Positions 1,636-53,659 are shown, counted from the stretch's first letter. The stretch is 64,000 bases of DNA from Vicinamibacteria bacterium (GCA_963668695.2 CAXXLQ010000004.1:2240001-2304000); one strand, 5' to 3'. The notes: a model not told the origin generated them from the letters alone. Numbers and translations are program-made.

Positions 1636-3411
1636 TTGCGCGTCGAAGGAAACACGGCGGGGCTCAAGTCCCGCGACCGGAAGGTATTGGAGCGCCTCAG
1701 CCGGCGGAGTTTGCCGCCGGCCGCGCTTCTGACCCGGGAGTTTGCCCGGCAGCTCGCGGGGATCTCCCACACGATTCGGCGTCAGGTGGGAGCTCTCGTG
1801 GACCGGCGCGGCACGATCACCTGGGTAGGAGTGGGGGACGCCCGCCGCATCGAACTGCCGGACCTGAAACGGCAGCGCGCGGCGGGCCGGCGGTTGCGGG
1901 GGTTGCGGTTTGTCCATACCCATCTGGCGGGAGAACCGCTGACGCGTGATGACCTCGCGGACCTCGTCCTCCTCCGGTTGGATCTGATGGCGGCCGTCAC
2001 GGTCGGCGAGGACGGACTGCCCGGCGTCGTCCATGTCGCCCACCTGAAGCCTCCCGGACGTCAAGGGAACGCCGCCAGCCCTCCCGGTGGGGGCCTTCAG
2101 ACCGGCACCGCCGCCCGGGGGGCGGCGAAAGCGAAAGAAGAAGATGAAACACCGTGGGAACTGCTGCCGCCCGTCGCCCCGAGTCAGTTGGACCTCGACT
2201 GCACCTCGCTCCTCGCCGACCTGGAGCGGGCCTTCGCGCGATTTGCGCCGGAGCGCCCGGGTCGGAAGTTCTCGGGACGCGCGATTCTGGTCGGGGTGGG
2301 GGAGAGATCGCTCCCGCTCGAGAACGTGATGGAGGAACTGGGTGAACTGGCCCGGGATGCGGGTCTCGAAGTTGTCGACTCTCTCGTGCAGCGCCGGCCT
2401 CGCCTCGACCCCCGTACCCTGGTCGGTCGAGGCAAGCTCGAAGCGCTCGTGATCCGGGCTCTCGACCGGGGCGCCGACCTGATCCTGTTCGCGTGCGACC
2501 TGAGTCCCTCTCAGACGCGCAACATTTCCCAGGCCACCGATCTCAAGGTCCTCGACCGCACCCAGTTGATCCTGGACATCTTTGCGCGGCGCGCGACGAG
2601 CCGGGAGGGGAAGCTGCAGGTCGAACTCGCCCAACTGCGTTACCGATTGCCGCGGCTGGTCCAGCGGGATACGTCGCTGTCTCGTCTGGCTGGCGGCATC
2701 GGGGGCCGGGGTCCGGGCGAGACCCGCCTCGAGGTGGACCGGCGGCGCACGCGCGAGAGGATCGCCCGCCTGCAGCGCGATCTGGCCCAGGTCGCGGTGA
2801 CGCGCGACGTGCGCCGGAAGCGGCGCGATGTCCGCGGCCTTCCGGTGGTCTCCCTGGTCGGTTACACGAACGCCGGGAAATCAACGCTGCTCAATCGGTT
2901 GACCCGAAGTCATGTGGCTGCCGGCAATCGGATGTTCGAGACCCTCGATCCCACGAACCGGCGGCTCCGGGTGCCCGTGGAGCGGGAAGTGCTGCTCGCT
3001 GACACGGTTGGCTTCATCCACGACCTGCCCGAAGACCTCATCGAGTCGTTTCGCGGCACGCTCGAAGAAATCTCGGCGGCATCCCTGCTGCTGCAGGTGG
3101 TTGATGCCTCGAGTTCCCGCCTCGACTCTCGCGCTGCTGCCGTCGAGAGCCTGCTCGGCGATCTTGGATTCCTCGAGATGCCCCGGATCGTACTGTTCAA
3201 CAAGGTGGACCGGCTCGATGAGGCGGCCCGGGCGGCTCTCCCGCACCGTCTCGCGGGGGCGGAAACCTGGCACGTTTCCGGGACTACCGGCGAGGGGCTT
3301 CAGGAGCTGGTCGGCGAGATCGCACGGCTCATTCCGATGAAGCCGGCGGGTATTGCCCCGGCGTTTCCGCCTCGAACGGTTCCGGAGAGGAATCCGCTAC
3401 TCCTTCGCTAA
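1636..3411 (+). CDS. hflX: GTPase HflX
   Basis: GYTNAGKS, FETLDPT, DTVGFI, NKVD; DRTQLILDIFARRA and GKLQVELAQL motifs. Confidence 0.95.
   Translation: MRVEGNTAGLKSRDRKVLERLSRRSLPPAALLTREFARQLAGISHTIRRQVGALVDRRGTITWVGVGDARRIELPDLKRQRAAGRRLRGLRFVHTHLAGEPLTRDDLADLVLLRLDLMAAVTVGEDGLPGVVHVAHLKPPGRQGNAASPPGGGLQTGTAARGAAKAKEEDETPWELLPPVAPSQLDLDCTSLLADLERAFARFAPERPGRKFSGRAILVGVGERSLPLENVMEELGELARDAGLEVVDSLVQRRPRLDPRTLVGRGKLEALVIRALDRGADLILFACDLSPSQTRNISQATDLKVLDRTQLILDIFARRATSREGKLQVELAQLRYRLPRLVQRDTSLSRLAGGIGGRGPGETRLEVDRRRTRERIARLQRDLAQVAVTRDVRRKRRDVRGLPVVSLVGYTNAGKSTLLNRLTRSHVAAGNRMFETLDPTNRRLRVPVEREVLLADTVGFIHDLPEDLIESFRGTLEEISAASLLLQVVDASSSRLDSRAAAVESLLGDLGFLEMPRIVLFNKVDRLDEAARAALPHRLAGAETWHVSGTTGEGLQELVGEIARLIPMKPAGIAPAFPPRTVPERNPLLLR
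2065..2133 (+). repeat. REP-derived sequence carrying an 18-bp module, in frame inside hflX
   Basis: Matches 5235-5285 (gggaacgccg/gtcttcagaccggcaccgcggcccggagggccgcgaaaccg) except for ccagccctcccggtgggg at 2075-2092. Confidence 0.8.
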
Positions 3412-3594
3412 CAGCCTGTGGTGGAACCCGGGTGAGCGCCGAGGCCGGTGAGGCGCCCGGCTGACAAGGCGCGTGAGGGAGGAATACCTAGTGTATTTCG
3501 ACCGAAACGCAACGATGAGCGGCGCGAAGCGACGCGGTTCAGCCGGGATGGATCGCCGGCCGAACGCCGCCTGGGTTTCACCACAGGCTGTTAA
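3408..3594. mobile_element. MITE-like element family A, copy 1
   Basis: Terminal inverted repeats CAGCCTGTGGTGGAACCC / GGGTTTCACCACAGGCTG flanked by CTAA and TTAA; core shared with 11 other loci. Confidence 0.85.
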
Positions 3595-4561
3595 GGCCGC
3601 CTGCCTCCCGGGAGAGGCGAATCAGGCTCTCGTAGCGGGCCGGGTCGGCCTTTCCGGCGGTGACCGCCGCCCGGACCGCGCAATCGGGTTCGGTCCGATG
3701 GGAACAGTCGGGGAAGCGGCAGTCGTCGGCGTAGGGGGCCAGATCGGGATGGGCGGTCCGGATGCGCGTCGCTGTCAGCCCGTCGAGGCCGAGCGCGCGG
3801 ATGCCCGGGGTGTCCACCAGCTCGCCTCCACCCGGAAGCGGGATCAGTTCGGCTGCCGTCGTGGTGTGGCGGCCCCTACCTCTGCGATCGAGTCCGCCGC
3901 TCCGCCGGCCGGGCACCCCGAGCGCCGCGAGCAGTTCGGTTTTCCCGACTCCCGAGTGGCCGAAGAGCACAGCCCGGCCGCGCGCCACACCGCTCCGGAA
4001 GGCCTCGATCCCCTCTCCGCTGCGCGTGCTCGTCCGATGGACTTCGAGTTCCAGCCGGCGATAGGGAACGAGATCGTGGGCAAGTCTGACGATTTCGTGT
4101 TCGCCTGCGAGATCGAGCTTGTTGAAGACGAGGACCGGGGTGACGCCCGCATCGAACGCGACCACCAGGGACCGGTCGAGGAAACCCGTCCGGTACGGCG
4201 GTTCCAAAAAAGCCGAGACGATGTAGCAGCGATCGAGATTGGCCGCGAACACGTGCATTTCCCGGCGTTCGGGTGGTCCGACAGCTCGGCGGAGCGCGTT
4301 GTGCCGGGGACGCACCGCGGTGATGCGCCCACTGGAGGTTCCCGTTCGGGAGGCGTGCGGTCGGCCCGGTTCGATCTCCTCGACGAGGACTTCATCCCCC
4401 ACCACGGCGGCGGCCCCGTCCGGGCGGGTATCTCCCCGGCTGAAGAGGCGCCCCCCGAGGGAGCAGCGCCAAAGGGATTCCGGCTCGCCGTGCGCGCCGG
4501 GCGGGAGCCGGACCATCGCTCCCTTTCGGCTCACCCGGATCACGGTCCCGGAGCGCTCCAT
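3578..4561 (-). CDS. rsgA: Ribosome small subunit-dependent GTPase A
   Basis: Circularly permuted GTPase: NKLD, GHSGVGKT, GRHTTT, DTPG; Zn motif CRFPDCSHRTEPDC. Confidence 0.93.
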   Translation of the reverse strand: MERSGTVIRVSRKGAMVRLPPGAHGEPESLWRCSLGGRLFSRGDTRPDGAAAVVGDEVLVEEIEPGRPHASRTGTSSGRITAVRPRHNALRRAVGPPERREMHVFAANLDRCYIVSAFLEPPYRTGFLDRSLVVAFDAGVTPVLVFNKLDLAGEHEIVRLAHDLVPYRRLELEVHRTSTRSGEGIEAFRSGVARGRAVLFGHSGVGKTELLAALGVPGRRSGGLDRRGRGRHTTTAAELIPLPGGGELVDTPGIRALGLDGLTATRIRTAHPDLAPYADDCRFPDCSHRTEPDCAVRAAVTAGKADPARYESLIRLSREAGGLNSLW

Positions 4562-4574
4562 CGGTAGGATGCTA

Positions 4575-6110
4575 ACTTCCGTCGAGCGGTCCGGAAGGGG
4601 GGCGCCTGTTCTGTTTGAGGGTTCGTGGCGGAGCTTGATTGGAGCTGCGCCCCCTTCGTGTCGAGCGGTCCGGGAGGGGGGCGTCCGTTCCGTTGGGGGT
4701 TCGTGGCGGAGCTTGATTGCAGCTGCGCCCCCCTCCCGAACCGCCCGGCGCTTCGCGCCGGGTTTCCGGAGTGCGGCGAGAGCCGCACGGAGACCCCGGA
4801 GCAGGAGGGGTTGGGGTCGGGGGACCCGACTCCCAGCCGCTCCTGGCTCGGGAATCGCAACTCCCTCGTGCGCCGGAGGCGCACTTCGGCGAGTTCCGAT
4901 TCGTAGTTGCGTTTTTGTGAACGGGGGGCGGTAGCCCCCCTTTCACGCTTTCCCCCCGGTCAGGCGGGCAGCGAACGGAGTTCGCTGCCATTGTTTTTGC
5001 TCGTTCAGGGCATCGACATCGACTGTGTGTCAATGGGCTTCGAAAATGTCCCACTTTCTTGGAGTGATTGTGTGCCGACGGAGGGGAGGGTTGACGGGAT
5101 CCGGAGGGGTTTCGGCCGGATAGGCGGCGGGGGATGAGTTCGGGGATGGGCGCGTCGGGCGCGGACGGAGTTCGCTGCCGTTGTTTTTTGCGCGCTCGCC
5201 TAAGCGCCGCCAACAGCAGATGGCGCGCAGGCCCGGGAACGCCGGTCTTCAGACCGGCACCGCGGCCCGGAGGGCCGCGAAACCGCGTGTAGCCGTTCCT
5301 CCGGATGGCGCGCTGACCCCGGAACGCCCGGCGCTCCGCGCCGCGCTTCCGGAGTGCGGCGAGAGTCGCACGGAGACCCCGGAGCAGGAGGGGTTGGGGT
5401 CGGGGAACCCGACTCCTGGCCGCTCCGTAGCTCGGGCTTCCGAAGTGGGGCGCGAGCCGCACGGAGACCCCGGAGCAGGAGGGGTTGGGGTCGGGGAACC
5501 CGACTCCTGGCCGCTCCTGGCTCGGGAATCGAAACTTCCTTGCGCGCCTCCGGCGCGCGGTGGCGAGTTCCGATTGGTCGTTTCCTTCTTGTGAAAGGGG
5601 GGCGATGGCCCCCCTTTCGCACCTTCCCCCCTCGTGTCGAGCGGTCCGGAACCGGGGCCCATAGACGGGATCGGTGGACTGGTGCCTTCTGAGCTGGAAC
5701 GAGGGGCCCCGTTCCCGAACCGCCCGGCGCTTCGCGCCGGCAATCGCAACTCCCTTGCGCGCCTCCGGCGCGCGGTGGCGAGTTCCGATTGGTCGTTGTC
5801 AATTTGTGAACGGGGGGCAGTGGCCCCCCTTTCACACTTTCCCCCCTCGTGTCGAGCGGTCCGGAACCGGGGCCCATAGACGGGATCGGTGGACTGGTGC
5901 CTTCTGAGCTGGAACGAGGGGCCCCGTTCCCGAACCGCCCGGCGCTTCGCGCCGGCAATCGCAACTCCCTTGCGCGCCTCCGGCGCGCGGTGGCGAGTTC
6001 CGATTGGTCGTTGTCAATTTGTGAACGGGGGGCAGTGGCCCCCCTTTCACACTTTCCCCCCGGTCATGCGGGCAGCGAACCGGAGGTTCGCTGCCGTCAG
6101 TTTCTTGCTT
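4575..6110. repeat. Mosaic array of hairpin-rich repeat modules including a 215-bp tandem duplication
   Basis: gtcgagcggtccgg at 4581, 4660, 5636 and 5851; cggagaccccggagcaggaggggttggggtcgggga x3; gtgaacggggggc..gcccccctttc hairpin x4; 5634 and 5849 start near-identical 215-bp units. Confidence 0.85.
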
Positions 6111-6355
6111 GCTCCGCGCCGCGCCGCGCACGGCGTGGACGCCGAGTGGCGTTATGGCTCACGTCTCGGCAATGACTCCATCGGGCATAGTGGCGTGCAG
6201 CCACCGGAACCCCGAACTCCGCCCGTTCTTCCCGTCCGTCCGGCCATTTATGGGCGCCGCGTGGCAGCCAGGTAAGTTCAAGTGGTCACTGCTGCTTTCG
6301 CTGCTCCGTGCGGGCAGTTGCGGCTGGTCGGTAGACCGTTCTTCGGAGTCCGCGT

Positions 6356-8813: not shown

Positions 8814-8859
8814 CCCGGTCGGATCGGATCGGCTTCGGCCCCGCTGCCGGGAGACGGCG

Positions 8860-11988: not shown

Positions 11989-12060
11989 GCCGGTGTAGCT
12001 CAGGGGTAGAGCAGCTGATTCGTAATCAGCAGGTCGGTGGTTCAAATCCACTCGCCGGCT
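11989..12060 (+). tRNA. tRNA-Thr(CGT)
   Basis: Cloverleaf: acceptor GCCGGTG/CGCCGGC, anticodon arm ctgat-tCGTa-atcag, T-arm GGTTCAAATCC; CCA not encoded. Confidence 0.95.
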
Positions 12061-13868: not shown

Positions 13869-13943
<75 letters not shown>

Positions 13944-15261: not shown

Positions 15262-15516
15262 CAGCCTGTGGTGAAACCCAAGCGGCCCAGTTCTCCCGGT
15301 GGGGGCTCGAGCGGCGATCCATCCCGTCTGAACCATGTCGCTTCGCGCCGCTCATCGTTGCGTTTCGGTCGGAATACACCCGGGCCAGTTCTCCCGGTGG
15401 GGGCTCCTCCCTCACGCGCCTTGTCAGCCGGGCCCCCACCGGGAGAACTGGCCCCACCGGGAGAACTGGGCCTCGCCGCTCTCGGCGCTCACCCGGGTTC
15501 CACCACAGGCTGCTAG
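15258..15516. mobile_element. MITE-like element family A, copy 3 (four 18-bp modules)
   Basis: Begins at the pheS TAG (TTAG) and ends with CTAG 3 nt before the pheT ATG. Confidence 0.85.
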
Positions 15517-27193: not shown

Positions 27194-27442
27194 TTAACAG
27201 CCGGTGGTGAAACCCACGCGGGTTCCACCACCGGCTGCTAACAGCCTGTGGCAAGACCCACGCGGCGTTCGACGGGCGATGCATCCCGTCTGATCCGCCC
27301 CGCTTTGCGGGGCTCTGCGTTGCGCTTCGGTCGAAATACACCCGGTATTCCTCCCTCACGCGCCTTGTCAGCCGGACCCCCACCGGGAGAACTGGGCCTC
27401 GCCCGTCTCGGCGCTCACGTGGGTTTCACCACAGGCTGTTAA
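27194..27442. mobile_element. MITE-like element family A, copy 4 (about 40-bp TIR-only mini-element plus full element)
   Basis: TTAA-cagccggtggtgaaacccacgcgggttccaccaccggctg-CTAA-cagcctgtgg...caggctg-TTAA. Confidence 0.85.
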
Positions 27443-28056: not shown

Positions 28057-29112
28057 ATGTCCGACGATCGCTACTCCCGCCAGACGCTCTTCCCCGGCAT
28101 CGGCCCGGAAGGGCAGCAGCGTCTGGCCCGCAGTCGGGTCCTGGTGGTGGGGGCCGGAGCCCTCGGCTCCGCCTCGCTCGACATGCTGGTGCGGGCTGGA
28201 GTCGGGACCGTGCGGTTCGTCGACCGTGACACAGTCGAGACTTCGAACCTGCAGCGGCAATCGCTCTACGATGAGGAGGACGCCCGGGAAGGGAGGCCCA
28301 AGGCGGAGAGCGCCCGGCGACGGCTCGCGGCGGTCAATTCGGAGGTGAAACTCGAACCGCTGGCGCTCGATCTCCACGCCGGGAACATCCGCGAAGTCAT
28401 GGAAGGGATGGACCTGGTGCTCGACGCCACCGACAACTTCGAGACGCGCTACCTCATCAACGACGCCGCCGTCGCCACCGGAACGCCGTGGATCTACGCC
28501 GCCTGCGTCGGCAGCTACGGGATGACCCTCACTGTGCTTCCGGGCCACACCGGGTGCCTGCGCTGCGTGGTCCCCGATGTCCCGCCACCCGGCGTGTCCC
28601 CGACCTGCGACACCGCGGGGGTGATCGCACCGGCGGTGCAGGCGGTGGCGTCCTACGCGGTGACCGAGGCCCTGAAACTGCTGGCGGGTCGGATGAACGC
28701 GCTGGCGACCGGGATCTGGCACCTCGACGTATGGGAGCGAACCGCCTATCGCATGGAGATCGGGGATCCGGACCCCGATTGCCCGGCCTGCGGACGGCGT
28801 GAGTTCCCTTTCCTCGACGGAGATGCGGGCGGGACCCTGCTGACTCTTTGCGGACGCAACGCCGTCCAGGTGCGCCCGGCCGCTTCGTCGGCTCCCGCCG
28901 GCGCGGCGAACCCGGACTTCCTCGACCGGCTGGGTGGCCGGCTCGGGGAGTTGCCGGAGGTGCGGGACTCGCTGCGGGTCACCGGTCACCTCCTCCAGTT
29001 CGAGGTCGCCGGACGGCGACTGGTGGTCTTCCCCGACGGGCGGGCGATCGTTCACGGCAGCGGCGATCCGGCGGAGGCCCGGACGCTCGTCTCACGCTAC
29101 ATCGGGAATTAA
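28057..29112 (+). CDS. ThiF/MoeB family adenylyltransferase (alternative GTG start at 28045)
   Basis: RYSRQ, VGAGALG, SNLQRQ, DATDNF, CLRC, TCDTAGV, CPAC, LCGRNAVQ. Confidence 0.92.
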   Translation: MSDDRYSRQTLFPGIGPEGQQRLARSRVLVVGAGALGSASLDMLVRAGVGTVRFVDRDTVETSNLQRQSLYDEEDAREGRPKAESARRRLAAVNSEVKLEPLALDLHAGNIREVMEGMDLVLDATDNFETRYLINDAAVATGTPWIYAACVGSYGMTLTVLPGHTGCLRCVVPDVPPPGVSPTCDTAGVIAPAVQAVASYAVTEALKLLAGRMNALATGIWHLDVWERTAYRMEIGDPDPDCPACGRREFPFLDGDAGGTLLTLCGRNAVQVRPAASSAPAGAANPDFLDRLGGRLGELPEVRDSLRVTGHLLQFEVAGRRLVVFPDGRAIVHGSGDPAEARTLVSRYIGN

Positions 29113-29295
29113 CAGCCTGTGGTGAAACTCAGGCGGCGTTCGAGCGGCGACGCATCCCGGCTGAACCGCGCCGCTTTGCGGCGCTCGGCGTTGCGTTTCG
29201 GTCGAAATACACTCGGTATTCCTCCCTCACGCGCCTTGTCAGCCGGGCGCCTCCCCGCTCTCGGCGCTCACCCGGGCTCCACCACAGGCTGTTAA
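29109..29295. mobile_element. MITE-like element family A, copy 5 (basic form, no 18-bp module)
   Basis: TTAA-cagcctgtggtg...caccacaggctg-TTAA, from the moeB stop to 2 nt before the hisZ ATG. Confidence 0.85.
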
Positions 29296-29297
29296 CC

Positions 29298-30398
29298 ATG
29301 AAGCCGACCGATTCGCTGCTTCGCGCTCCCTCCGGGGCGATCACCCATGTGGGGGCGGCCGCGCGCCGCCGCCGGCAGGTCGAAGAGATCGCCGCCGCGG
29401 TATTCCGCGGTTGGGGCTACGAAGAGATCCTCCTGCCGCTCTTCGATCACGCGGAGGTATTCGCTCGTGGCGGTGGGCGCTGGTCCGAGCGCTCCAGCTA
29501 CCGGTTCACCGAAGGAGGGGATCTGCTCGCTCTCCGCGCCGACTTCACGGCGCTCGCGGCGCGGGCCGCGGTGACCCGTCTGCCCCGTGAAGCGGAGCGG
29601 CTCTTCTACCGTGGCGAGGTGGTGCGGCGACCGGGGCGCGGGCTCGGTCCCTCGGCTTTCCGGGAGGTGGGAGTGGAGCATTTCGCTGCCGGCCCGAGGG
29701 CGGATCTGGAGGTTCTGATGGTGGCCCTCGAAGTCCTCGAGCGCCTCGGGATAGACGGGTTCGTCTTCACTCTGGGGCACGCCGGCTACCCGCTGGGTCT
29801 TCTGGATGAGGCGCTCTCCGGGGCCGCCGATCGGGATGAGCGGCGCGCGGAAGCGCTCCGGGGCCTCTGGCGGCGCGACCCGTCCCGGATCCGGTCGGCG
29901 CTCGGAGCCGGCGCCGCGCCGCTCGTTCAGATGCTTGAGCTCTTCGGGGGGAAGGAGGTGCTGGAGGAGGCGGCGCGGAGCCGGCTCCCCGAGCGCGGCC
30001 GACAGGCGGCCAGCGAGCTCGCCAGGATCGCCCGGGTGCTCGAAGAGCTGGGTCTCTCCGACCGGTTCCGGTTCGATCTGGCCGAGCTCCGGGGCTTCGA
30101 CTACTACACCGGACTCATCTTCGAGATCCACGCTCCCGGCGCCGGGCAGGAGATTGGGGGAGGGGGCCGCTACAACGACCTGCTCGCGAACTTCGGCGAT
30201 CCGCGCCCGGCGGTGGGATTCTCCCTGTCGGTGGACCGGCTGGCCGGGATCCTCCCGGAATCCCCGGAACCCGCCCACGGCGGGGTCGAATCGATCGAGC
30301 GGGGACCGGACACGGAGATTGGGCTGGCCGCCCGCTTCCGGGCGGCCCGCGCCGCCCGGACCCGGGGCGCGCACATCCGTTTCAGGCCCGCGGGCTGA
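29298..30398 (+). CDS. hisZ: ATP phosphoribosyltransferase regulatory subunit
   Basis: WGYEEI..P.F, LALRADFT, FDLAELRGFDYYTGLIFE, GGGRYNDL, AVGFS; short-form hisG nearby. Confidence 0.9.
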   Translation: MKPTDSLLRAPSGAITHVGAAARRRRQVEEIAAAVFRGWGYEEILLPLFDHAEVFARGGGRWSERSSYRFTEGGDLLALRADFTALAARAAVTRLPREAERLFYRGEVVRRPGRGLGPSAFREVGVEHFAAGPRADLEVLMVALEVLERLGIDGFVFTLGHAGYPLGLLDEALSGAADRDERRAEALRGLWRRDPSRIRSALGAGAAPLVQMLELFGGKEVLEEAARSRLPERGRQAASELARIARVLEELGLSDRFRFDLAELRGFDYYTGLIFEIHAPGAGQEIGGGGRYNDLLANFGDPRPAVGFSLSVDRLAGILPESPEPAHGGVESIERGPDTEIGLAARFRAARAARTRGAHIRFRPAG

Positions 30399-34120: not shown

Positions 34121-35496
34121 GCGGGGCGGCGCGCGGACTCCCGGGCCGCTTTGCGGTACCCATTTTCGAAGGCGCTGACGCCTATCGGGCCGACCCGCGG
34201 CGGACCAGTCTCGAAGGAACCGGTTCCGGCCAGATTGTCCGGGAGCGAACCGCGGCCATCCTGGAGCGGGTGCGACGGGAGGGGGACGACGCTCTCGTCG
34301 AGTTGGCGCGCCGGTTCGATTCCGCGGCCTTTGAATCGTCACACCTGCGGGTATTCCCGGGGGAACTCGCTCGCCTCGCTGCGGACGCCGGTCCGGAGGA
34401 GCGGGGTTTGCTCCGGCGGACCCGGGAACGCATCGCGGCGTACCACGAGCGCCAGCGCGAAACGTCGTTCCGGATGGATCTCGGGGAGGGATCGCGCCTC
34501 GAATGGCGATCCGCGCCGATCGCGTCAGTGGGGGTCTATGTGCCCGGCGGAGCGGCGGTGTACCCGTCCACCGTGCTCATGAACACGGTTCCGGCCGCGG
34601 TGGCCGGGGTTCCGCGGATTGCGCTCACGACGCCTCCGGGCGCGCTCGAACGCAGTCCGGTGCTGGCGGCGGCGATCCTCGCGGCCGGCGTCCACGAGGT
34701 CTACCGAATCGGCGGAGCCCAGGCCATCGCGGCCTTGGCCTTCGGAACGGCGACCGTTCCGCCGGTCGACAAGGTGGTGGGACCGGGGAACGCCTACGTA
34801 GCGGAGGCAAAGCGTCAACTCGGCCACCGTATCGGGACCGACGCATTCGCCGGACCCTCCGAAGTCGTGGTGCTGGCCGACGAAACGGCCCGGCCGGACT
34901 GGGTTGCCGCGGATCTCCTGGCCCAGGCCGAACATGGTTCCGGAGAGGAGCGGGCCATTCTCATCACCACCTCGCGCGACCTTGCGGAGGCAACGGTCGC
35001 CGAACTCGGGCGTCAGGCCGAAGGCCAGCCGAACGCCGAGACCATCGCCCGCGCCCTTGCCCGCCACGGAGCCGTGGTGCATGTCGAGCACCTCGAAGAC
35101 GCGGTGCGGCTTGCGGAGGAAATCGCGCCCGAACATCTCGAAGTGATGACGCGGGATCCCGAGGCCCTTGCCGACCGGTTCCCAAGTTCGGGCGCCGTGC
35201 TGCTGGGCCACCATTCGCCGGTTGCGATCGGAGACTACGGAGCGGGCCCGAACCACGTTCTCCCGACCGGCGGCACGGCCCGCTTCGCCTCGCCGCTCTC
35301 GGTCGGCGATTTTGTGAAACGGCAAAGCGTTCTCCGCTTCCGGAAAGCGACCCTCGAGTCGCTCCGGGATGACTTCGAGCGCTTTGCCCGCATCGAGGGA
35401 TTCGAGGCGCACGCCCGCTCCGTTGCGATCCGTTTCGAGGATGATCACCCGCAGGGAACCCCGGCCACCGGTAGCCCGGCGCCGAGCCGGCCTTAA
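34117..35496 (+). CDS. hisD: Histidinol dehydrogenase
   Basis: VGVYVPGG.A.YPSTVLM, GGAQAIAALAFG, GPGNAYV, AGPSE, DLLAQAEH, APEHLE, GPNHVLPT. Confidence 0.96.
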   Translation: MSGAARGLPGRFAVPIFEGADAYRADPRRTSLEGTGSGQIVRERTAAILERVRREGDDALVELARRFDSAAFESSHLRVFPGELARLAADAGPEERGLLRRTRERIAAYHERQRETSFRMDLGEGSRLEWRSAPIASVGVYVPGGAAVYPSTVLMNTVPAAVAGVPRIALTTPPGALERSPVLAAAILAAGVHEVYRIGGAQAIAALAFGTATVPPVDKVVGPGNAYVAEAKRQLGHRIGTDAFAGPSEVVVLADETARPDWVAADLLAQAEHGSGEERAILITTSRDLAEATVAELGRQAEGQPNAETIARALARHGAVVHVEHLEDAVRLAEEIAPEHLEVMTRDPEALADRFPSSGAVLLGHHSPVAIGDYGAGPNHVLPTGGTARFASPLSVGDFVKRQSVLRFRKATLESLRDDFERFARIEGFEAHARSVAIRFEDDHPQGTPATGSPAPSRP

Positions 35497-35715
35497 CAGC
35501 CTGTGGCAAAACCCACGCGGCCCAGTTCTCCCGGTGGGGGCTCGGCCGGCGATCCATCCCGTCTGAACCACGCCGCTTTGCGCCGCTCTGCGTTGCGTTT
35601 CGGTCGAAATACACCCGGGCCAGTTCTCCCGGTGGGGGCTCCTCCCTCACGCGCCTCGTCGGACGGGCGCCTCGCCGGTCTCGGCGCTCACACCACTTTA
35701 TCCACCGGCTGCTAG
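35493..35715. mobile_element. MITE-like element family A, copy 6
   Basis: TTAA (hisD stop) cagcctgtgg...ccaccggctg CTAG; two 18-bp modules. Confidence 0.85.
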
Positions 35716-35747
35716 GACAAACTGGCGGGTTCGCTACATTTGACGCC

Positions 35748-40738: not shown

Positions 40739-41047
40739 CCAGCAGCCTGTGGACAAAGTCACGCGGCCCAGTTTTCCCGGTGGGGGCTCGACCGGCGATG
40801 CATCCCGGCTGAACCGCGCCACATCGTGGCGCTCTGCGTTGCGCTTCGGTCGAAACACGCTCGGGCCAGTTCTCCCGGTGGGGGCTTCTCTCTCGCGCGC
40901 CTTGTCAGCCGGGCCCCCACCGGGAGAACTGGCCCCACCGGGAGAACTGGCCCCACCGGGAGAACTGGCCCCACCGGGAGAACTGGCCCCACCGGGAGAA
41001 CTGGGCCTCACCGCTCTCGGCACTCACGCCACTTTATCCACAGGCCG
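40739..41047. mobile_element. MITE-like element family A, copy 7, with 5x tandem 18-bp module
   Basis: cagcctgtggacaaagt...actttatccacaggccg; (ccccaccgggagaactgg)x5 at 40915-41004. Confidence 0.85.
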
Positions 41048-41794: not shown

Positions 41795-42288
41795 CAGCCT
41801 GTAGTGAAACCCCCGCGGCCCAGTTCTCCCGGTGGGGGCTCGGCCGGCGATCCATCCCGGCCGAACAGCCGGTGATGAAACCCCCGCGGCCCAGTTCTCC
41901 CGGTGGGGGCTCGGCCGGCGATCCATCCCGGCTGTTCACCGCGTCGCTTCGCGCCGCTCATCGTTGCGTTTCGGTCGGAATACACCCGGGCCAGTTCTCC
42001 CGGTGGGGGCTCCTCCCTCACGCGCCTTGTCAGCCGGGCGCCTCGCCCCCACCGGGAGAACTGGCCGGCCTCGGCGCTCACGCGGGTTCCACCACCGGCT
42101 GCTAACAGCCTGTGGCAAAACCCACGCGGCGTTCGACCGGCGATCCATCCCGGCTGAACCACTCCGCTTCGCTGCGTTCTGCGTTGCGTTTCGGTCGAAA
42201 TACACCCGGTATTCCTCCCTCACGCGCCTTGTCAGCCGGGCGCCTCACCGGCCTCGGCGCTCACCCGGGTTTCACCACAGGCTGTTAA
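41791..42288. mobile_element. MITE-like element family A, composite copy 8
   Basis: Two elements joined at CTAA 42102-42105; 71-bp internal duplication; ends TTAA. Confidence 0.85.
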
Positions 42289-43044: not shown

Positions 43045-43597
43045 GCAGCCCGTGGACAAGGTGAACCGGCATTCGACCGGCGATGCATCCCGGCCAAACA
43101 ACCGGTGATGAAACCCACGCGGCCCAGTTCTCCCGGTGGGGGCTCGGCCGGCGATCCATCCCGGCTGAACTGCCGGTGATGAAACCCACGCGGCCCAGTT
43201 CTCCCGGTGGGGGCTCGGCCGGCGATCCATCCCGGCCAAACAGCCGGTGATGAAACCCACGCGGCCCAGTTCTCCCGGTGGGGGCTCGGCCGGCGATCCA
43301 TCCCGGCTGAACCGCGTCGCTGCGCGCCGCTCATCGTTGCGTTTCGGTCGGAATACATCCGGGCCAGTTCTCCCGGTGGGGGCTCCTCCCTCACGCGCCT
43401 TGTCAGCCGGGCGCCTCGCCCCCACCGGGAGAACTGGCCGGCCTCGGCGCTCATGCGGGTTCCACCACCGGCTGTTCACCGCGTCGCTTCGCGCCGCTCA
43501 TCGTTGCGTTTCGGTCGGAATACATCCGGGCCAGTTCTCCCGGTGGGGGCGCCTCCCCGCTCTCGGTGCTCGCCCCACTTTGTCCAAGGACTGCTAA
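43042..43597. mobile_element. MITE-like element family A, composite copy 9
   Basis: Starts at the DUF393 stop; 71-bp unit x3 (modules at 43124, 43195, 43266); ends ggactg-CTAA. Confidence 0.85.
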
Positions 43598-43640
43598 ACG
43601 ACGGTATCCTGCGCTACCGGCCCATCCGAGGAGGTCTCTC

Positions 43641-46484: not shown

Positions 46485-46590
46485 AACCGCCCAATCCTAC
46501 CGGACTCAGAACCCCGAACGGCCGTCGCTGTTGTGAGGAGGCGGTGCCCCGCGAAACCGCCGCTTCGCCGCTGTAACCTCTCGACGCCCC

Positions 46591-48783: not shown

Positions 48784-48813
48784 GCCCGGCGCCGGAGTCG
48801 GGTCCCGGGGTGT

Positions 48814-49329
48814 TTAACAGCCTGTGGTGAAACCCACGTGAGCGCCGAGACCGGCCAGTTCTCCCGGTGGGGGCGAGGCCCAGTTCTCCCGGTGGGGCCA
48901 GTCCTCCCGGTGGGGGCCCGGCTGACAAGGCGCGTGAGGGAGGAATACCTGGTGTATTTCGACCGAAACGCAACGATGAGCGGCGCGAAGCGACGCGGTG
49001 AACAGCCTGTGGTGGAACCCGCGCGAGTGCCGAGGCCGGCCAGTTCTCCCGGTGGGGGCGAGGCCCAGTTCTCCCGGTGGGGCCAGTCCTCCCGGTGGGG
49101 GCCCGGCTGACAAGGCGCGTGAGAGAGGAGCCCCCACCGGGAGAACTGGCCCGGGCGTATTTCGACCGAAACGCAACGATGAGCGGCGCGAAGCGACGCG
49201 GTTCGGCCGGGATGGATCGCCGGCCGAGCCCCCACCGGGAGAACTGGGCCGCGCGGGTTTCATCACCGGCTGTTTGGCCGGGAGGGATCGCCGGTCGAAC
49301 GCCGTGTGGGTTTTGCCACGGGTTGTCAG
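48814..49329. mobile_element. MITE-like element family A, composite copy 10
   Basis: TTAA-cagcctgtgg...ccacgggttg abutting the lctP stop; internal duplication; several 18-bp modules. Confidence 0.85.
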
Positions 49330-51095
49330 TTGGCGCGGTTGCGGAAGATCCACACCGCGGCCGCGACCGCGATACCGGCAACGACCAGGGAACCGGCATT
49401 GACCGGTCCCAGCGTGCCCGACCACAGGATCGCATAACCGAGGGCTCCCGGGAGCAGGGCGTAGTAGACGAACGGAACCAGCGTGCGCCGGATCACGGCG
49501 CCTTCACGGCCGACCAGTCCGACGACCGCCGAGGCGGCCACCACGTTGTGGACGCAGATCATGTTCCCGGCCGCTCCCCCGACCGCCTGGAGCGCGACCA
49601 CCCATCCGGGATCCACCGAGAGACGCTCGCCGACTCCGAACTGGAACAAGGAGAACATCATGTTGCTCACGGTGTTGCTGCCGGCGACGAAGGCCCCGAG
49701 GCCGCCGATGAAGGGTGCGAAGAACGGCCAAGCCGACCCCGCGATCTGTGCGGCGCCCTCGGCGAGGGCGATGGGCATCGAGGCGAGCCCTGCCGCACCG
49801 CCGCCGGTATTCAGGAACACCTGCACCATGGGCACGGTGAACACCAGCGCCACCGAAGCGAGAGCGGTGCTCCGGAGCGAGGCAGAAACCGCGCGTCCGA
49901 TCTGATCCCGGTCCATCCGGTGGATCAGGACCGCAAACAGCGAGGCGGCGATGAAGACGGCGCCCGGAAGGAACAATGGTGCGGCGCTCGCGCTGATGTC
50001 GCTGCCGAAGATCTCCGGCCAGCGAATCACCACCCCCGAGAGGAACTCCTTGAAGGGTAGCCACGGCAGGCGGGTGAGCACCAGGAGGCCGCCGACAACC
50101 GCGTAGGGAGCCCACGCGGACACGGCTCCGATCGTCCGGCCCTTTGCAGGTTGGATATCGGAGATCAGCTTCCCGCCGACCCAGTCTGCGTCCCAGGCGG
50201 AGCGCGCCGGGAACTCGAAGTGCTGCCCGACGGGGGGCATGAAGAGGCCCCGCCGGGCGGCGGTAACGACGATCCCGAGCCCGACCAGGCCGCCGAGCAG
50301 CGCCGGGAATTCCGGGCCGAGCAGCCAAGCGGTCAGCAGGTAGGGGACGATCATCGCCACCGCGGCGAAGAGGGCGAATTTCCAGACCGCGAGTCCCTCC
50401 CGGAAACTCCGGCGCTCGCCGAAGAACCGGGTCATGGTGGCGACCACGATGAGCGGGACCAGGGTGCCGGCGACGGCATGCAGGATCGCAACCCGAAGTC
50501 CGATGAAGGCCAGGAACTCGGTCCATTCCGGGAATCCGAGCCCGGCGGCGTAGGCGGCGACCGCTTCCGATCCCGAGAGACCGGTGGAGACCCCGACCAG
50601 GATCGGGGTTCCCGCGGCGCCAAAGGAGACGGGAGTGCTCTGGATGATCATTCCCGCCACCACGGCGGCGAGCGGCGGGAACCCGAGGCCCACCAGCAAC
50701 GGCACGGCAACCGCCGCCGGAGTCCCAAATCCGGCAGACCCCTCGATGAACGACCCGAACAGCCAGGCGATCAGGATGACCTGGATGCGCCGGTCGGGAG
50801 TGATGCCGACGAATCCCCGCCGGATTACCGAGAGAGCCCCGCTCTCCTGCATGGTGTGCAGGAGCAGAAGCGCGCCGAAGATGATGTACAGCAGCGTCCC
50901 TGCGACCACCAGGCCGTTGACCGAGGCGGCGGCGATCCGGACGCCGGAAATGCCCCAGACACCCCAAGCGAGTCCCGCCGCAGCGAGCCAGCTCAGCGGC
51001 ATGGCGCGCGACGCCGGCCAGCGCAAGCCGACCAGAAAGAGTGCGACCACCCCGATCGGGATGAGCGCGATCGCGGCAAGACCAAGAGTTCCCAT
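49326..51095 (-). CDS. lctP: L-lactate permease
   Basis: [47 protein letters not shown]; many TM helices. Confidence 0.92.
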
Positions 51096-51161
51096 GAGAG
51101 TTATCGGCTAACCGCCTTCCTGGCCCCCGCGGCCTGCGGAGGGCTGACTAGAATCCCGGCC

Positions 51162-52469
51162 GTGCCACGGGCATCGTTTACGTCGCTGGGCTGTCGTCTC
51201 AACCACACAGAGGCAGCGAACTGGGCGGGGCAGTTCGCGGGCAAAGGCTACACGATCGTTCCCTGGGGGGAGCCGACCGACCTCGTGGTCATCAACACCT
51301 GTTCGGTGACCCATCGAGCGGAGGCGCACTGCCGCAACACCGTGCGGCGGACGCTTCGTCACTCACCCGAGGCCTTCGTGGTGGTGGCGGGGTGCTATGC
51401 GCAATCCGGCCTCGACGCCCTTCGGGAAATCGCCGGAGTGGACATGATCGTCGGGACCGAATTCAAGGAGAGCTTCCCGGACTACCTGGATCGGCCCCGA
51501 AAACTACCCGAACCGGTCGTTCTCCACTCGGCGCGGATTTCACGCCATGAATTCGAGGTTCCGTCGACTGGGCGCTACGACACCACCCGCGCCAATCTCA
51601 AGGTGCAGGACGGCTGCGACTTCTTTTGTTCGTTCTGCATCATCCCCTACACGCGGGGCCGGGAGCGCAGCCGGCGATTTGACGACCTGGTCCGGGAGGC
51701 CCGGGAACTCGCCGAAGCCGGGTATCAGGAACTCGTGCTCACGGGGGTGAACATCGGGCGCTACCAAAGCGGAGGCCGCACACTGACTGATGTCGCGGAC
51801 CGGCTCGAGGAGGTCCCTGGCGTACGGAGAATCCGCATCACTTCGATCGAGCCCACTACCGTGGAAGAACGCTTGCTCGAGCGAATGGCCGAGCGCGGGG
51901 CGCTCTGCCGCTATCTGCATCTCCCGGTACAGAGCGGAGACGATGAAGTGCTGGCCCGGATGGGCCGCCGCTACCGCATGCGCGATTACCGCGAGTTTGC
52001 GGATCGGGCCGTCGAAATGGTGCCCGGTCTCGGTCTCGGAACCGACGTAATTGTCGGATTTCCGGGCGAAACGGATGACGCGTTTCGGCGCACCTGCGAC
52101 AACCTGCAAGAAATGCCGTTCGCCTACTACCACGTATTCAGCTACTCGTCCCGCGCCGGAACCCGGGCCGCGGGCCTTGCCGGGCACCTCCCGCCCGATT
52201 TGGTCGCGGAGCGCAGCCGCACCCTCAGGGAACTCTCGGACCAGCGCCGGGACGCGTTCGCTAGGCGCCACCTGGGCCAGCGCGTGGAAGTTCTGTTCGA
52301 ACAGCGGGATCGTACCGGCCGCTGGACCGGTTTGACCGATTCCTACCTTCGAGTCGGGGTGGTCTCGGCGGAGCCGCTCGAAAACTGCATCCGCGAGGTG
52401 CGGATCACCCGGATCGCGAGTGAAACCCCCGGTCTTGCCGTTGGAACCCTGGTTCCAGCAGCCGGTTAG
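51162..52469 (+). CDS. mtaB: tRNA t6A37 methylthiotransferase MtaB
   Basis: LGCRLN, INTCSVT, GCYAQ, KVQDGCDFFCSFCIIP, LTGVNIG, TSIEP, TDVIVGFPGET. Confidence 0.9.
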   Translation: MPRASFTSLGCRLNHTEAANWAGQFAGKGYTIVPWGEPTDLVVINTCSVTHRAEAHCRNTVRRTLRHSPEAFVVVAGCYAQSGLDALREIAGVDMIVGTEFKESFPDYLDRPRKLPEPVVLHSARISRHEFEVPSTGRYDTTRANLKVQDGCDFFCSFCIIPYTRGRERSRRFDDLVREARELAEAGYQELVLTGVNIGRYQSGGRTLTDVADRLEEVPGVRRIRITSIEPTTVEERLLERMAERGALCRYLHLPVQSGDDEVLARMGRRYRMRDYREFADRAVEMVPGLGLGTDVIVGFPGETDDAFRRTCDNLQEMPFAYYHVFSYSSRAGTRAAGLAGHLPPDLVAERSRTLRELSDQRRDAFARRHLGQRVEVLFEQRDRTGRWTGLTDSYLRVGVVSAEPLENCIREVRITRIASETPGLAVGTLVPAAG

Positions 52470-52474
52470 GACAA

Positions 52475-52543
52475 GGAGCGCCGGTAATCACACCGGCATC
52501 GCGGCCAAGGGAGAAGGAACACACCTAGGAGCGCCGGTCTGAA
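52475..52543 (+). repeat. Two REP-like copies, the second truncated
   Basis: ggagcgccggtaatcacaccggcatcgcggcc at 52475; ggagcgccggtctgaa at 52528 cut off mid-palindrome. Confidence 0.65.
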
Positions 52544-52991
52544 CCCGACTTCGCCAAGACGGTATGTCGTGGGTCTGTAACTCGTTGACAATACGTGCCT
52601 TGGAAAATCGGGTGCCGGCAGCTTGGCACTACGTTTGTGTATTTGGGTCCGGTTTCCGGCGGGTGCGCCGGCGGTGATGGTGGGGCTCGACGCCTGCTGC
52701 CCGCGCGATCTGGGCCACCTGCGCCGGGGGGCGGACGTCCTGCCGATTCACGATCAGCCGTCCGTTCGTCTCCCGGATCGTGGTGGTCATCCGCACCCAC
52801 GGCCGCAGCCGGGTACGGATCGAGTCCCACGACAGGCGGATGCCTCGAGCCTTCAGCCGGGTGCGGATCAGGTGCACCGCGTGATAGGCGAGCACCGCCA
52901 GGAAGAGGTGCGCCGCGATCCGGCTGTGCTTCACATGCCAGATCGGCCGCAGCCCCAGCTCCGTCTTCAGCGCCCGGAACGTCGCCTCTCT
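52544..52991 (-). pseudogene. IS1634-family transposase C-terminal remnant with probable right end
   Basis: EATFRALKTELGLRPIWH...RIAAHLFLAVLAY (stop at 52629); the 5' part is replaced by a MITE composite. Confidence 0.8.
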
Positions 52992-53659
52992 TGAGCAGCC
53001 GGTGGACAAAGTCACGCGGCGTTCGGCTGGCGATGCATCCCGGCCAGACAGCCTGTGATGAAACCCACGCGGCCCAGTTCTCCCGGTGGGGGCTCGGCCG
53101 GCGATCCATCCCGGCCAAACAACCGGTGATGAAACCCACGCGGCCCAGTTCTCCCGGTGGGGGCTCGGCCGGCGATCCATCCCGGCTGAACCGCGTCGCT
53201 GCGCGCCGCTCATCGTTGCGTTTCGGTCGAAATACACCCGGGCCAGTTCTCCCGGTGGGGGCTCCTCCCTCACGCGCCTTGTCAGCCGGACCCACCGGGA
53301 GAACTGGGCCTCGCCGGCCTCGGCGCTCACGTGGGTTCCACCACCGGCTGTTCACCGCGCCGCTGCGCGCCGCTCATCGTTGCGTTTCGGTCGAAATACA
53401 CCCGGGCCAGTTCTCCCGGTGGGGGCTCCTCCCTCACGCGCCTTGTCAGACCCCCACCGGGAGCGCCTCACCGGCCTCGGCGCTCACGTGGGTTCCACCA
53501 CCGGCTGTTCACCGCGCCGCTGCGAGGCGCTCATCGTTGCGCTTCGGTCGAAATACACTTGGGCCAGTTCTCCCGGTGAGGGCTCCTCCCTTGCGCGCCT
53601 TGTCAGCCGGGCACCTCGCCAGCCTCGGCGCTCCCGCCACTTTGTCCACCGGCTACTAG
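52992..53659. mobile_element. MITE-like element family A, composite copy 11
   Basis: cagccggtggacaaagt...actttgtccaccggcta-CTAG (nrdJ stop); 71-bp unit x2 and core x3. Confidence 0.85.

Follow-up and report, generated by a model that had tools for sequence, protein, structure and literature searches.

A short repeat module gained and lost at fixed positions inside hairpin repeats of marine Acidobacteria

In the small hairpin repeats of marine Acidobacteria, we found an 18-base word, M (CCAGTTCTCCCGGTGGGG), that comes and goes independently at set positions. A sequence-only reading of the window, by which we mean the whole 64-kb stretch of DNA analysed, had put M at about 40 copies by eye; our search of both strands returned 33 exact copies (0 expected from 100 shuffles) and 39 at ≤3 mismatches (0.15 expected). 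Extended to the whole of G000, the genome analysed (assembly 91.7% complete, 9.34% estimated contamination), the count which that reading had proposed came to 1288 exact copies and 1631 at ≤2 mismatches. In agreement with the same reading, (i) M occurs in both orientations, doubled (15434/15452 and 48880/48898) or as five head-to-tail copies (40915-41004), with tandem arrays running from 1 to 5 units; (ii) it is not palindromic, no inverted repeat within the 18-mer being longer than CCGG; (iii) it has no terminal repeats, its ends CCAGTT and GGTGGGG(GC) not being inverted repeats; and (iv) a constant GC trails it (after 962 of 1287 exact genome copies) and overwrites target sequence, 1-3 bases of which are replaced. 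In practice, the unit is the 20-nt M+GC.

Two unrelated repeats host M: a ~185-bp TA-inserting MITE, at four main sites, and REP2, a hairpin repeat of ~50 bp, in both of its arms. The four internal MITE sites described earlier were all recovered, namely, B (gcggc/gttcg), A (cccgg/tattcc), C (gggc/gcctc), and D (cgcctc(gc)/ccgg), as were the module-free MITE copies, and the 39 window copies of M are distributed over B (11), A (9), C or tandem arrays (12), D (4), REP2 (1), and other contexts (2). The exchange between empty and filled states follows a rule that is constant for each site: GT for M+GC at B (164 empty, 237 filled); TATT for G+M+GCT at A (217 and 235); GC for M+GT or M+m+GC at C, where m is a module variant (191, 60, and 93); T, C, or G (76, 47, and 29) for M+GC at D; and T for M+GC on both REP2 arms. 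Modules stand singly at site B and in most REP2 copies, and M is followed by GT at site C and by GG at the E-type site instead of GC. The replaced target bases differ by site, which fits sloppy templated repair better than clean cut-and-join.

Altogether, M, whose boundaries are fixed, lies between 48 dissimilar 12+12-nt flanks, nearly always 3' of GG or GGC. On the left, these flanks finish with CCGG, CGGG, or GGC, position -1 being G (33/48) or C (13/48) in 46 of the 48 contexts; +1 is G in 37/48 and +2 is C in 36/48, and past these three positions the composition equals background. A duplicated flank, that is, a target-site duplication, was found in none of the 48. The host MITE does carry TIRs and a TA duplication, unlike M, and we rejected M itself as a MITE (a DDE transposon derivative) on the grounds that its ends are not inverted repeats and its flanks are not duplicated. 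The copies in the window are as follows.

2063..2122, plus strand: REP2 with a degenerate module (2075-2092, CCAGCCCT...), 60 nt in frame, in the N-terminal extension of the HflX ORF.
15287..15469, unstranded: one MITE with B (15287, plus), A (15385, plus), and a double at C (15434-15469, minus); exact match and orthologs.
27378..27395, minus strand: MITE with a single module at C and with B, A, and D empty; exact match and ortholog comparison.
29100..29300, plus strand: module-free MITE copy, every site empty; MITE comparison.
35522..35637, plus strand: MITE filled at B (35522) and at A (35620); exact match and orthologs.
40768..41004, unstranded: MITE filled at B (40768, 1 mismatch) and A (40866), with an inverted tandem array of five units at C (40915-41004); matches at ≤3 mismatches.
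41820..42064, unstranded: MITE with B modules at 41820 and 41891 in a 71-bp tandem sub-repeat, A at 41991 (plus), and D at 42047 (minus); exact match and folding.
42100..42285, plus strand: module-free MITE copy adjoining the previous one, all four sites empty; MITE comparison.
43124..43548, unstranded: MITE array with B at 43124, 43195, and 43266, A at 43364 (plus), D at 43420 (minus), and an A-type module followed by a deletion at 43531; exact match.
48855..49247, unstranded: two reverse-oriented MITEs with D at 48855 and 49040 and C doubles M+m at 48880-48915 and 49065-49100; matches at ≤3 mismatches.
Within 48855..49247, minus strand: A at 49132 and B at 49230 of the same MITE pair; matches at ≤3 mismatches.
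53074..53581, unstranded: MITE array with B at 53074 and 53145, A at 53243, 53407, and 53564, and C at 53290 (minus, 1 mismatch); matches at ≤3 mismatches.
59690..59870, minus strand: module-free MITE copy in reverse orientation; the G004 ortholog is likewise module-free.

The first of these is an in-frame insertion of M in a coding region. As noted earlier from the sequence, a module (here a 2-mismatch copy at 2075) sits inside the unrelated REP in hflX: in the long ORF 1636-3411, HflX domains begin at residue 230 and the module lies near residue 147. The REP2 with its module is present in G000, G004, and G008, where it holds the canonical 18-mer, and absent from G001.

Evidence for local gain and loss of M comes from syntenic MITE copies (synteny within 2.5 kb) in three sister genomes of 88-94% identity, placed on the species tree ((G000,G001),G004),G008; orthology is synteny based, and independent insertions at the same TA may be included. 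The filled/empty comparison suggested by the sequence-only reading showed that module content differs in 38 of 95 G000-G001/G004 site comparisons: 21 sites differ and 26 are the same between G000 and G001 (~4 of the 21 being misalignments or small within-module changes), and 17 differ and 31 are the same between G000 and G004 (about 2 of the 17 being such cases). The MITE at 15287..15469 has the same layout in G004, while in G001 its C is empty and its D filled; at 41820..42064, both B sites are filled and A and D empty in G001; the intergenic region of the five-copy array holds three tandem copies in G001; the array at 43124..43548 has three B units in G000 versus one in G004; and one MITE with 3 modules in G000 has none in G004, with otherwise ~4 base differences. 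Of 14 G000 arrays that were scored against both G001 and G004, five carry modules in G000 alone. Three arrays carry them in G001 alone, and at one of these the three other genomes are all empty; loss in the sister lineage fits one G000 array and one G001 array. At 4 to 35 bp from the module, substitution divergence of state-differing and same-state orthologs is 7.2 versus 6.6% (Mann-Whitney P = 0.67) and 7.1 versus 7.3% (P = 0.59), that is, neighbouring bases show no extra divergence that would indicate co-conversion of flanks. Within each of at least four MITE subfamilies, site B is found both empty and filled. The module/MITE-core ratio ranges from 15/90 (G010) to 87/22 (G014), so module load is decoupled from MITE load across genomes. 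The many unrelated flanks, the local gain and loss without co-conversion, and this decoupling bear out the earlier proposal that M is a unit independent of its host repeats. The statement in that reading that M is not explained by slippage alone is supported as well.

One module variant, CCAGTCCT... (156 copies), is common to sites C, D, A, and REP2, which points to copying from existing copies. We tentatively favour, at a little short of an even chance, the reading that M is a REP-like, separately evolving "nano-repeat" that enters hairpin arms as a copy of modules already present elsewhere. The M+GC cassette would be placed at a few G-rich junctions, directly 3' of CCGG, CGGG, or GGC, on the arms of hairpin-forming intergenic repeats (the MITE and REP2), replacing 1-3 target bases. 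Copy number could then grow as the host MITE or REP2 transposes, by slippage into tandem arrays of 2-5 copies, and by acquisition of an inverted partner on the opposite arm, which would turn a weak hairpin into a 22-bp perfect stem. In the MITE at 41820..42064, the A and D modules form such a stem: folding energy is -11.6 kcal/mol (z -1.2) for the A-D region when empty and -35.7 (z -4.8) when filled. Of 321 MITE cores bearing a site-A module, 217 also have an inverted module in the right arm (odds ratio 2.4, with a P value that overstates, since copies in one genome share ancestry). Contexts with one module are no more stably folded than their shuffles (z +0.8 and +1.0), so M alone lacks the structure used by known single-stranded DNA transposases.

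For the copying step, we infer quite possibly a trans-acting, sequence-specific nicking/joining on hairpin or single-stranded DNA, with RAYT-like logic and outside the Pfam families tested; enzyme-free short-patch template switching between copies at stalled hairpins is a possible but less probable route. The enzymes put forward earlier fared poorly. Against an HUH/RAYT-type nuclease, the Y1/IS200-type (RAYT) domain PF01797 had 0 matches in G000, G004, G018, and G019, G000 has no homolog of the Y1-like protein of G001, and the Y1-like genes of relatives are nearly without modules (one module, in 1 of 6 loci examined). A reverse transcriptase with a short template finds no candidate for RVT_1 in G000, G004, or G008. 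As for an unusual recombinase, the single IS110-family recombinase of G000 lends no support, sitting in a REP2 loop and having unrelated ends. The best TnpB domain match in G000 was below the cut-off, and Vsr and C5-methylase genes were not found in this 91.7% complete assembly.

New here is the observation of E, a non-coding element of ~148-510 bp bounded by the two halves of M: its copies begin with the first 6 nt of M (CCAGTT/GCTGTGAAAATGCAG...) and finish with its last 12 nt plus GC (...GATCATGGGGGTTT/CTCCCGGTGGGGGC), and G000 holds 15 left and 29-30 right ends. E is found at the junctions that M uses and bears identical scars there (site A, REP2, and, at C4:2157838-2158064, site B), and REP2-borne E and REP2-borne modules share an end variant (GCAGTT...GGGGCC). 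Judged from these sequences, M may be either the specific target of E or E's fused ends. In the latter case, which the shared ends, junctions, scars, and variant favour but which we consider unlikely, M would be a minimal deletion derivative moved by a putative transposase of E, or an E excision footprint, and its ~1600 copies would record E activity. However, a size series from 148 bp to 18 bp is absent, searches found no autonomous E, orthologs that cleanly contrast the E, M, and empty states were not recovered, a 20-bp hairpin-free unit is no known transposase substrate, and a 323-nt query from E matched nothing in G018 (0 of 40 scored candidates), a genome with 259 modules. Given the abundance of intact M, the simpler reading is that E is an insert, E', lying between two half-M sequences, and that M is its target. 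E' interrupts M at a constant point, CCAGTT^CTCCC, and no recognised transposase gene was found in it. On this reading, M would also be the specific target of another element. A bolder reading, in which M is the smallest mobile DNA unit yet seen in bacteria, is inserted 3' of CCGG/GGC on hairpin (single-stranded) DNA by a sequence-specific activity, and is the landing site of E', is rather doubtful.

M is also far more uniform than its surroundings. Among site-B modules found via a flanking anchor, 318/341 are exact, and per-site divergence at site B is 0.7% in the module versus 13.9% in the 18 nt upstream. Differences in module versus 14-nt flank in orthologous same-state pairs are 5/396 versus 29/616, 4/432 versus 29/672, and 1/144 versus 13/224, with module divergence slightly capped in that both partners needed an M match at ≤2 mismatches. 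This roughly four-fold slower divergence of shared modules would fit either selection or homogenisation. Together with the recurrence of the exact 18-mer in 5 of 16 related genera searched and the apparent sequence-specific recognition of M by E', it argues for the selected binding site that the sequence-only reading gave as an alternative, with M recognised by a protein or RNA of the host or by MITE machinery, kept and recruited by selection, and spread by ordinary recombination. We regard this as improbable, although it is compatible with the nano-repeat reading: sites are created by whole-word insertion and not by point mutation, 15 to 1566 copies per genome within one genus would be odd for a host function, no replichore strand bias was seen, and there is no known binding protein.

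Very unlikely, and largely refuted, is descent from one ancestral composite MITE with every module, in which empty sites arose by deletion and shuffling by inter-copy gene conversion. Scars are constant per site, the two arrays that fit loss in a sister lineage indicate that losses do occur, and modules co-occur within the same MITE copies above chance (odds ratios 2-4, with P values that overstate, since genome copies share ancestry). Yet the 5 + 3 polarised gains mean that deletion from a single composite does not account for every copy of M, M sits in both arms of the unrelated REP2 as well as in the 48 dissimilar flanks, state-differing orthologs lack excess flank divergence, and M is placed at other sites in other genera. 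Just as remote is a DNA-uptake-type sequence, built up by biased uptake and recombination as DUS/USS are: the ~1300-1600 copies in 4.1 Mb are strand-equal, evenly spread, family-specific, and frequently in inverted pairs, but 1317 of 1480 arrays lie in the five largest repeat-context clusters (>90% in a handful of contexts), and M arrives as 18-20-nt whole-word insertions and tandem arrays, not as substitutions in ordinary sequence, for which we rejected it. That the tandem and composite arrangements are assembly artefacts is scarcely credible, for although G000 carries its estimated contamination and contig C1 nearly duplicates parts of C4 (96-97%), the same layouts recur at syntenic loci of independently assembled genomes (the 15434-15469 double also in G004) and array length changes by whole units (5 versus 3, 2 versus 1).

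Among known systems, REP/REPIN sequences mobilised by RAYT (Bertels & Rainey 2011, PMC3116915, PMC3337134) resemble M in that it is ~20 nt long, very abundant, intergenic, lineage-specific, far more uniform than neutral DNA, and persistent across related species; inverted pairs forming a long hairpin, typical of REPINs, are seen for M in part of its copies. Unlike these sequences, M is non-palindromic, does not self-fold, is mostly single, and is nested inside other repeats; a RAYT/Y1 gene was not found in the two richest genomes, G000 and G004, and the Y1-like genes of relatives, bar the one locus, are not M-flanked. M is linked to the mosaic repeats of intergenic DNA (BIMEs in E. coli, pneumococcal BOX, and ERIC, which has internal insertions at constant points) by interchangeable short modules, variable tandem number, and extra sequence at fixed internal positions; among 636 MITE cores, B, A, and the right arm are occupied in all 8 possible combinations, with arrays of 1-5 units. 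What sets M apart is that one identical 18-mer occupies at least four sites, in both orientations, in one element plus an unrelated repeat, with lineage-specific gains documented in orthologous copies. PATEs derived from IS200/IS605 insert 3' of a short fixed motif, have subterminal hairpins, and occur in genomes with TnpA (Y1) and/or TnpB. M resembles them in part, standing directly 3' of one of a few short motifs, in one orientation to it and with no target duplication seen, and it shares a link to hairpin or single-stranded DNA; it differs in lacking subterminal hairpins, being ~10 times shorter, replacing 1-3 target bases, and having no TnpA or TnpB found in G000. IS1397 and the IS621/IS110 family are insertion sequences that target REP-type repeats. 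Likewise, E' enters M at a fixed position and the IS110-family element of G000 lies in a REP2 loop, indicating that small repeats are specific landing sites; the likeness covers what lands in M and REP2, not the spread of M, and E' has no recognised transposase gene. Finally, hairpins are reportedly made or perfected by template-switch mutations (quasipalindrome correction; work of Ripley and of Loytynoja and co-workers), in which, much as for M, short templated patches take the place of a few bases and perfect inverted copies arise on the opposite arm; template switching predicts neither one fixed 20-nt unit at 48 unrelated flanks nor sequence constraint.

M behaves like a mobile unit far smaller than those usually described. 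The spread of REP-like repeats is a long-standing question, and M does not match the established account, in which RAYT works on palindromic REPINs. In this lineage, several complete genomes supply a large number of dated, clean filled/empty pairs for a 20-nt unit whose junctions are defined, which makes the insertion rule directly testable. On one hand, if the process is enzyme driven, a fixed 20-nt word is written at hairpin sites, and the activity would represent a novel type of short-patch DNA writer. On the other hand, if it is enzyme free, it would show with unusual clarity how templated micro-insertion can shape the intergenic DNA of bacteria and make long perfect hairpins beside genes. 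If the bolder reading is true, the picture would be of a three-tier nested ecosystem, in which the MITE and REP2 host M and M hosts E'.

The module M (CCAGTTCTCCCGGTGGGG) occurs as 33 exact copies in the window, against 0 from shuffles, and as 39 copies with ≤3 mismatches (0.15 from shuffles), which agrees with the roughly 40 that a reading of the sequence alone had counted by eye. The arrangements picked out by that sequence-only reading are present as well: M is doubled at 15434/15452 and at 48880/48898, stands five times head to tail at 40915-41004 and has a copy with 2 mismatches at 2075 within the REP of hflX, while the host MITE is module-free at 29100-29300 and 59690-59870. A third module-free MITE copy lies at 42100-42285. 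Across the 4.10-Mb genome (G000; 67.5% G+C), of which the window is C4:2240001-2304000, the count that it had called for gives 1288 exact copies, equal on the two strands and evenly distributed, and 1631 copies with ≤2 mismatches, including 156 of a variant, m (CCAGTCCT...). No replichore strand bias was found for M, and a replication-strand polarity signal (Chi/KOPS-like) was rejected on that ground. Contig C1 holds 43 of the 1288 exact copies; parts of it are 96-97% identical to regions of contig C4, estimated contamination is 9.34%, and DNA from another strain or haplotype may be present in the assembly. Among 41 related genomes, the word with ≤1 mismatch is present in 21, namely in all 15 of the same genus (8 to ~780 copies) and in four more genera of the family, and is carried by 0 of 16 genomes from the two other families of the order; G017, G022 and G024 are module-free. 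The reversed word, used as control, gave 0-1 matches. Carriers in a scan of species-representative genomes were Candidatus Marinacidobacterium and Vicinamibacteria and Acidobacteria MAGs, together with a few single matches in unrelated bacteria that are compatible with chance.

M is hosted mainly by a MITE of ~185 bp, which has inverted ends of the CAGCCTGTGG type and duplicates TA; at the locus of window position 35480, the sister genome G001 shows the empty TA site. The four internal MITE sites with distinct junctions, described from sequence alone, each have an empty/filled pair that is fixed per site across all copies compared.

Module sites, with copy numbers in parentheses, and flank classes of the 39 window copies
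Site B: empty GCGGC[GT]TCG (164), filled GCGGC[M GC]TCG (237); 11 window copies
Site A: empty CCCGG[TATT]CC (217), filled CCCGG[G M GCT]CC (235); 9 window copies
Site C, minus strand: empty GAGGC[GC]CCGG (191), filled [M GT] single (60) or [M m/M GC] double (93); 12 window copies at C or in tandem
Site D, minus strand: empty CCGG[T/C/G]GAGG (76/47/29), filled CCGG[M GC]GAGG (62 canonical, 15 with variant m, other variants fewer); 4 window copies
REP2: 1 window copy
Other: 2 window copies

REP2 is a hairpin repeat of ~50 bp (AGGAGCGCCGGTCTTCAGACCGGCATCGC plus a second hairpin) unrelated to the MITE, in which M follows CCGG on either palindrome arm and a T is swapped for M+GC. Genome-wide, 1480 arrays fall into 76 flank clusters, of which 46 are singletons. 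When 48 flanks with no mutual similarity are compared, the only positions that depart from background are +1 (G, 37/48), +2 (C, 36/48), -1 (G 33, C 13) and -2. The constant GC noted beyond the G-run, which overwrites target bases, directly follows 962 of 1287 exact copies in G000, with M+GC replacing GT at B and T at REP2. Together with the flank positions, this constancy defines the unit as M+GC, placed after GG or GGC. M+GC thus sits at G-rich junctions on the hairpin arms of two unrelated repeat families.

Some local arrangements in the window deserve mention. The left arm of the MITE contains a tandem sub-repeat of 71 bp with a site-B module in each unit (41840-41910 and 43124-43336), with three units in G000 vs one in G004 at the 43030 locus, and one MITE of the 53074-53581 array holds a truncated inverted module at ~53440-53465 (CCCCCACCGGGAG fused directly to cgcctc). 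At 2063-2122, a 60-nt REP2 plus module would read in frame within an N-terminal extension of the HflX ORF, at about residue 147, the Pfam domains beginning at 230, beyond the insertion; it is present in G000, G004 and G008 and lacking in G001. REP2 copies and a MITE array are separated by a stretch of ~450-500 bp (~52560-53040) that G001, G004 and G008 lack at their syntenic loci, and ORFs spanning it gave no Pfam match.

The module behaves independently of its host repeats. Both states of site B occur in each of at least four MITE subfamilies, and occupancy of B, A and the right arm shows all eight of eight combinations among 636 MITE cores, with positive associations (odds ratios 2-4) whose p-values are overstated because the copies are related. 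Across genomes, module load is decoupled from MITE load (90 MITE cores and 15 modules in G010, 22 and 87 in G014, 636 and 1566 in G000), and in other genera M lies elsewhere within related MITEs or in hairpins that resemble REP2.

Comparison with syntenic DNA (0.48-0.88 Mb) of G001, G004 and G008, three genomes of this genus whose identities give the tree ((G000,G001) 93.9%, G004 90.5%), G008 87.5%, shows frequent local gain and loss of M+GC by itself. Among G000 arrays with a synteny-checked, flank-aligned counterpart, module state is the same at 26 and different at 21 relative to G001 (~4 of the differences being misalignment or small within-module change), and the same at 31 and different at 17 relative to G004 (~2 such differences); every true ortholog difference is the exact empty/filled pair of that site. 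Substitution divergence 4-35 bp off the module is 7.2% in differing vs 6.6% in same-state orthologs for G001 (Mann-Whitney p 0.67) and 7.1% vs 7.3% for G004 (p 0.59). Given this equality, the state is not flipped by ordinary gene conversion whose tracts span tens of bases, and long conversion tracts were rejected since flank divergence is not raised where states differ. Of the G000 arrays, 14 were scored in G001 as well as in G004: eight are filled in all three genomes, five are filled in G000 only and one fits loss in G001. On the G001 side, three arrays are filled in G001 only (one of these being empty in G000, G004 and G008) and one fits loss in G000. At C4:2205860-2206200, G000 has a MITE with three modules (B+, A+, D-) whose G004 counterpart has none, the copies being otherwise ~4 bases apart; its B and A are empty in G001 too. 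Descent of all copies by deletion from one ancestral composite, the phylogeny against which the sequence-only reading had set its proposal, is refuted by these polarised, G000-only and G001-only gains. A truncated G001 copy (11 nt of M, then repeated GCGCGGC), considered as an aborted template switch, is left out of the evidence because a CCCG-CCCG microhomology deletion over one 71-bp unit explains it more simply; it was seen at one locus (L159) among the G001 pieces compared, the only other match being L084, a locus from the scan of species-representative genomes. The TA site at window 35480-35720 is occupied by a MITE in G000, by one with another filling in G004 and by one in inverted orientation in G008, and it is vacant in G001, which suggests a hot TA with repeated MITE insertion.

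Shared copies of M are constrained or homogenised. Site-B modules located by a downstream anchor, independently of their own sequence, are exact in 318 of 341 cases, with a per-site divergence of 0.7% vs 13.9% in the upstream 18 nt. In single-module ortholog pairs, differences in M vs 14-nt flanks number 5/396 vs 29/616 (G000-G001), 4/432 vs 29/672 (G000-G004) and 1/144 vs 13/224 (G001-G004), making M ~four-fold less divergent (the rule of detection within 2 mismatches caps the module figure slightly); M is thus selected or continually re-copied. Variant m is seen at C, D, A and REP2, which implies that new copies inherit the sequence of old ones. As had been noted, M is not palindromic and alone forms no hairpin, single-module contexts folding like shuffles (z +0.8 and +1.0). 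Two copies together do form a long stem: the A-D region without modules folds at -11.6 kcal/mol (z -1.2) vs -35.7 kcal/mol (z -4.8) for an A(+)/D(-) pair, with a 22-bp perfect stem, and an inverted partner on the right arm accompanies the A module in 217 of the 321 cores that carry one.

How is M copied? We tentatively favour a putative sequence-specific activity that would work in trans on hairpin or single-stranded DNA, because boundaries are fixed in 48 contexts, M is conserved across genera and bursts differ from genome to genome. The enzymes that the sequence-only reading had proposed found no support in the searches: in G000, whose 91.7% completeness leaves enzyme absence not proven, there is no match to Y1_Tnp (RAYT) and no homolog of a Y1-like protein of G001, the relatives' Y1 genes being unlinked to modules, and RVT_1, for a reverse transcriptase, gives 0 matches. 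TnpB, with only a sub-threshold match in G000, was set aside. As for an unusual recombinase, G000 has a single IS110-family gene, in a REP2 loop and with ends unrelated to M:

L217 (G000:C4:480899-484372), ORF 1477-2724: IS110-family element, DEDD_Tnp_IS110 and Transposase_20

Across the family, the number of IS110 copies does not follow module load (G019 has 0 IS110 and 70 modules), and this recombinase too was rejected as mover. The same kind of IS lies nested in REP2 within a copy of element E (see below) in G004 (L244), indicating that REP2 is a specific IS110 target. A known RNA family was discarded as a basis, the only window matches at Rfam gathering score being two tRNAs:

11989-12060, plus strand: tRNA gene
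13869-13943, minus strand: tRNA gene

The NTS/SRM of the Ssn system are palindromic hairpins (PMC11893778), unlike M, and this nuclease lead was dropped. Beside REP2, CTGG replaces CCGG in 16/18 filled vs 0/34 empty copies; 5-methylcytosine deamination with Vsr short-patch repair at CCGG was rejected, G000 having no Vsr and no C5-methylase, and the copies with CTGG appear to form a single REP2 subfamily.

Enzyme-free short-patch template switching is a possible, somewhat less likely alternative to a trans-acting activity, in keeping with the replacement of bases at insertion, the hairpin context and the absence of a candidate gene. That M is a selected binding site, compatible with the other readings, we hold to be improbable.

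The main further rival, that M derives from the fused termini of E, a non-coding element bounded by the two halves of M, is similarly unlikely. E came to light in a search of G000 for incomplete copies of M. Outside full modules, the 3' part is present at 32 places, where it mostly closes a longer sequence; a lone 5' part is rare, with 11 places that mostly resemble chance matches. Left ends (CCAGTT, then GCTGTGAAAATGCAGTCGCGCC...) number 15 in G000 and right ends (...GACCCGATCATGGGGGTTT, then CTCCCGGTGGGG+GC) 29-30; the distance between paired ends is 148-378 bp in G000 and reaches 510 bp in relatives. This 148-510-bp family has subterminal inverted motifs (TGTGAAAA / TTTTTCATG), nested REP2 units in many copies, no transposase gene found and no Rfam match at E≤1. 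Its copies occupy exactly module positions, with identical scars:

G000:C4:2157838-2158064, outside the window: E copy at site B, same junction and scar as M
C1:7603-7830: further E copy
C4:195799-195947: further E copy
C4:716610-716899: further E copy
L118:10324-10646, in relatives: further E copy

No autonomous parent of E was found in G000, a five-genome query or viral and metagenome scans: orphan ends in G000 have no attached long repeats, the five-genome matches were mostly nested REP2 pieces, and the viral scan gave 1 match and the metagenome scan 4, the one inspected, a metagenome match (L249), lying in unrelated lower-GC sequence. Among E loci mapped by orthology, no clean three-state set emerged. 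G018 has 259 modules, yet 0 matches to the 323-nt E query, which favours M as the target; on the plain reading of the junctions, an inner element (E') would insert specifically into M at CCAGTT^CTCCC, M being the empty target.

Among known repeats, M behaves most like REP/REPIN (also a BIME/BOX-type mosaic module). It does not qualify as a REP/RAYT system, because it is non-palindromic and no RAYT was found in G000; it is not a MITE, because it lacks terminal inverted repeats and target duplication, and not a PATE, because it lacks end hairpins. Literature searches for Marinacidobacterium, which gave no paper, and for sponge-symbiont Acidobacteria with MITEs turned up no earlier description of M. 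We class M as a REP-like mosaic repeat, and there is a real chance that the mechanism of its spread is new.
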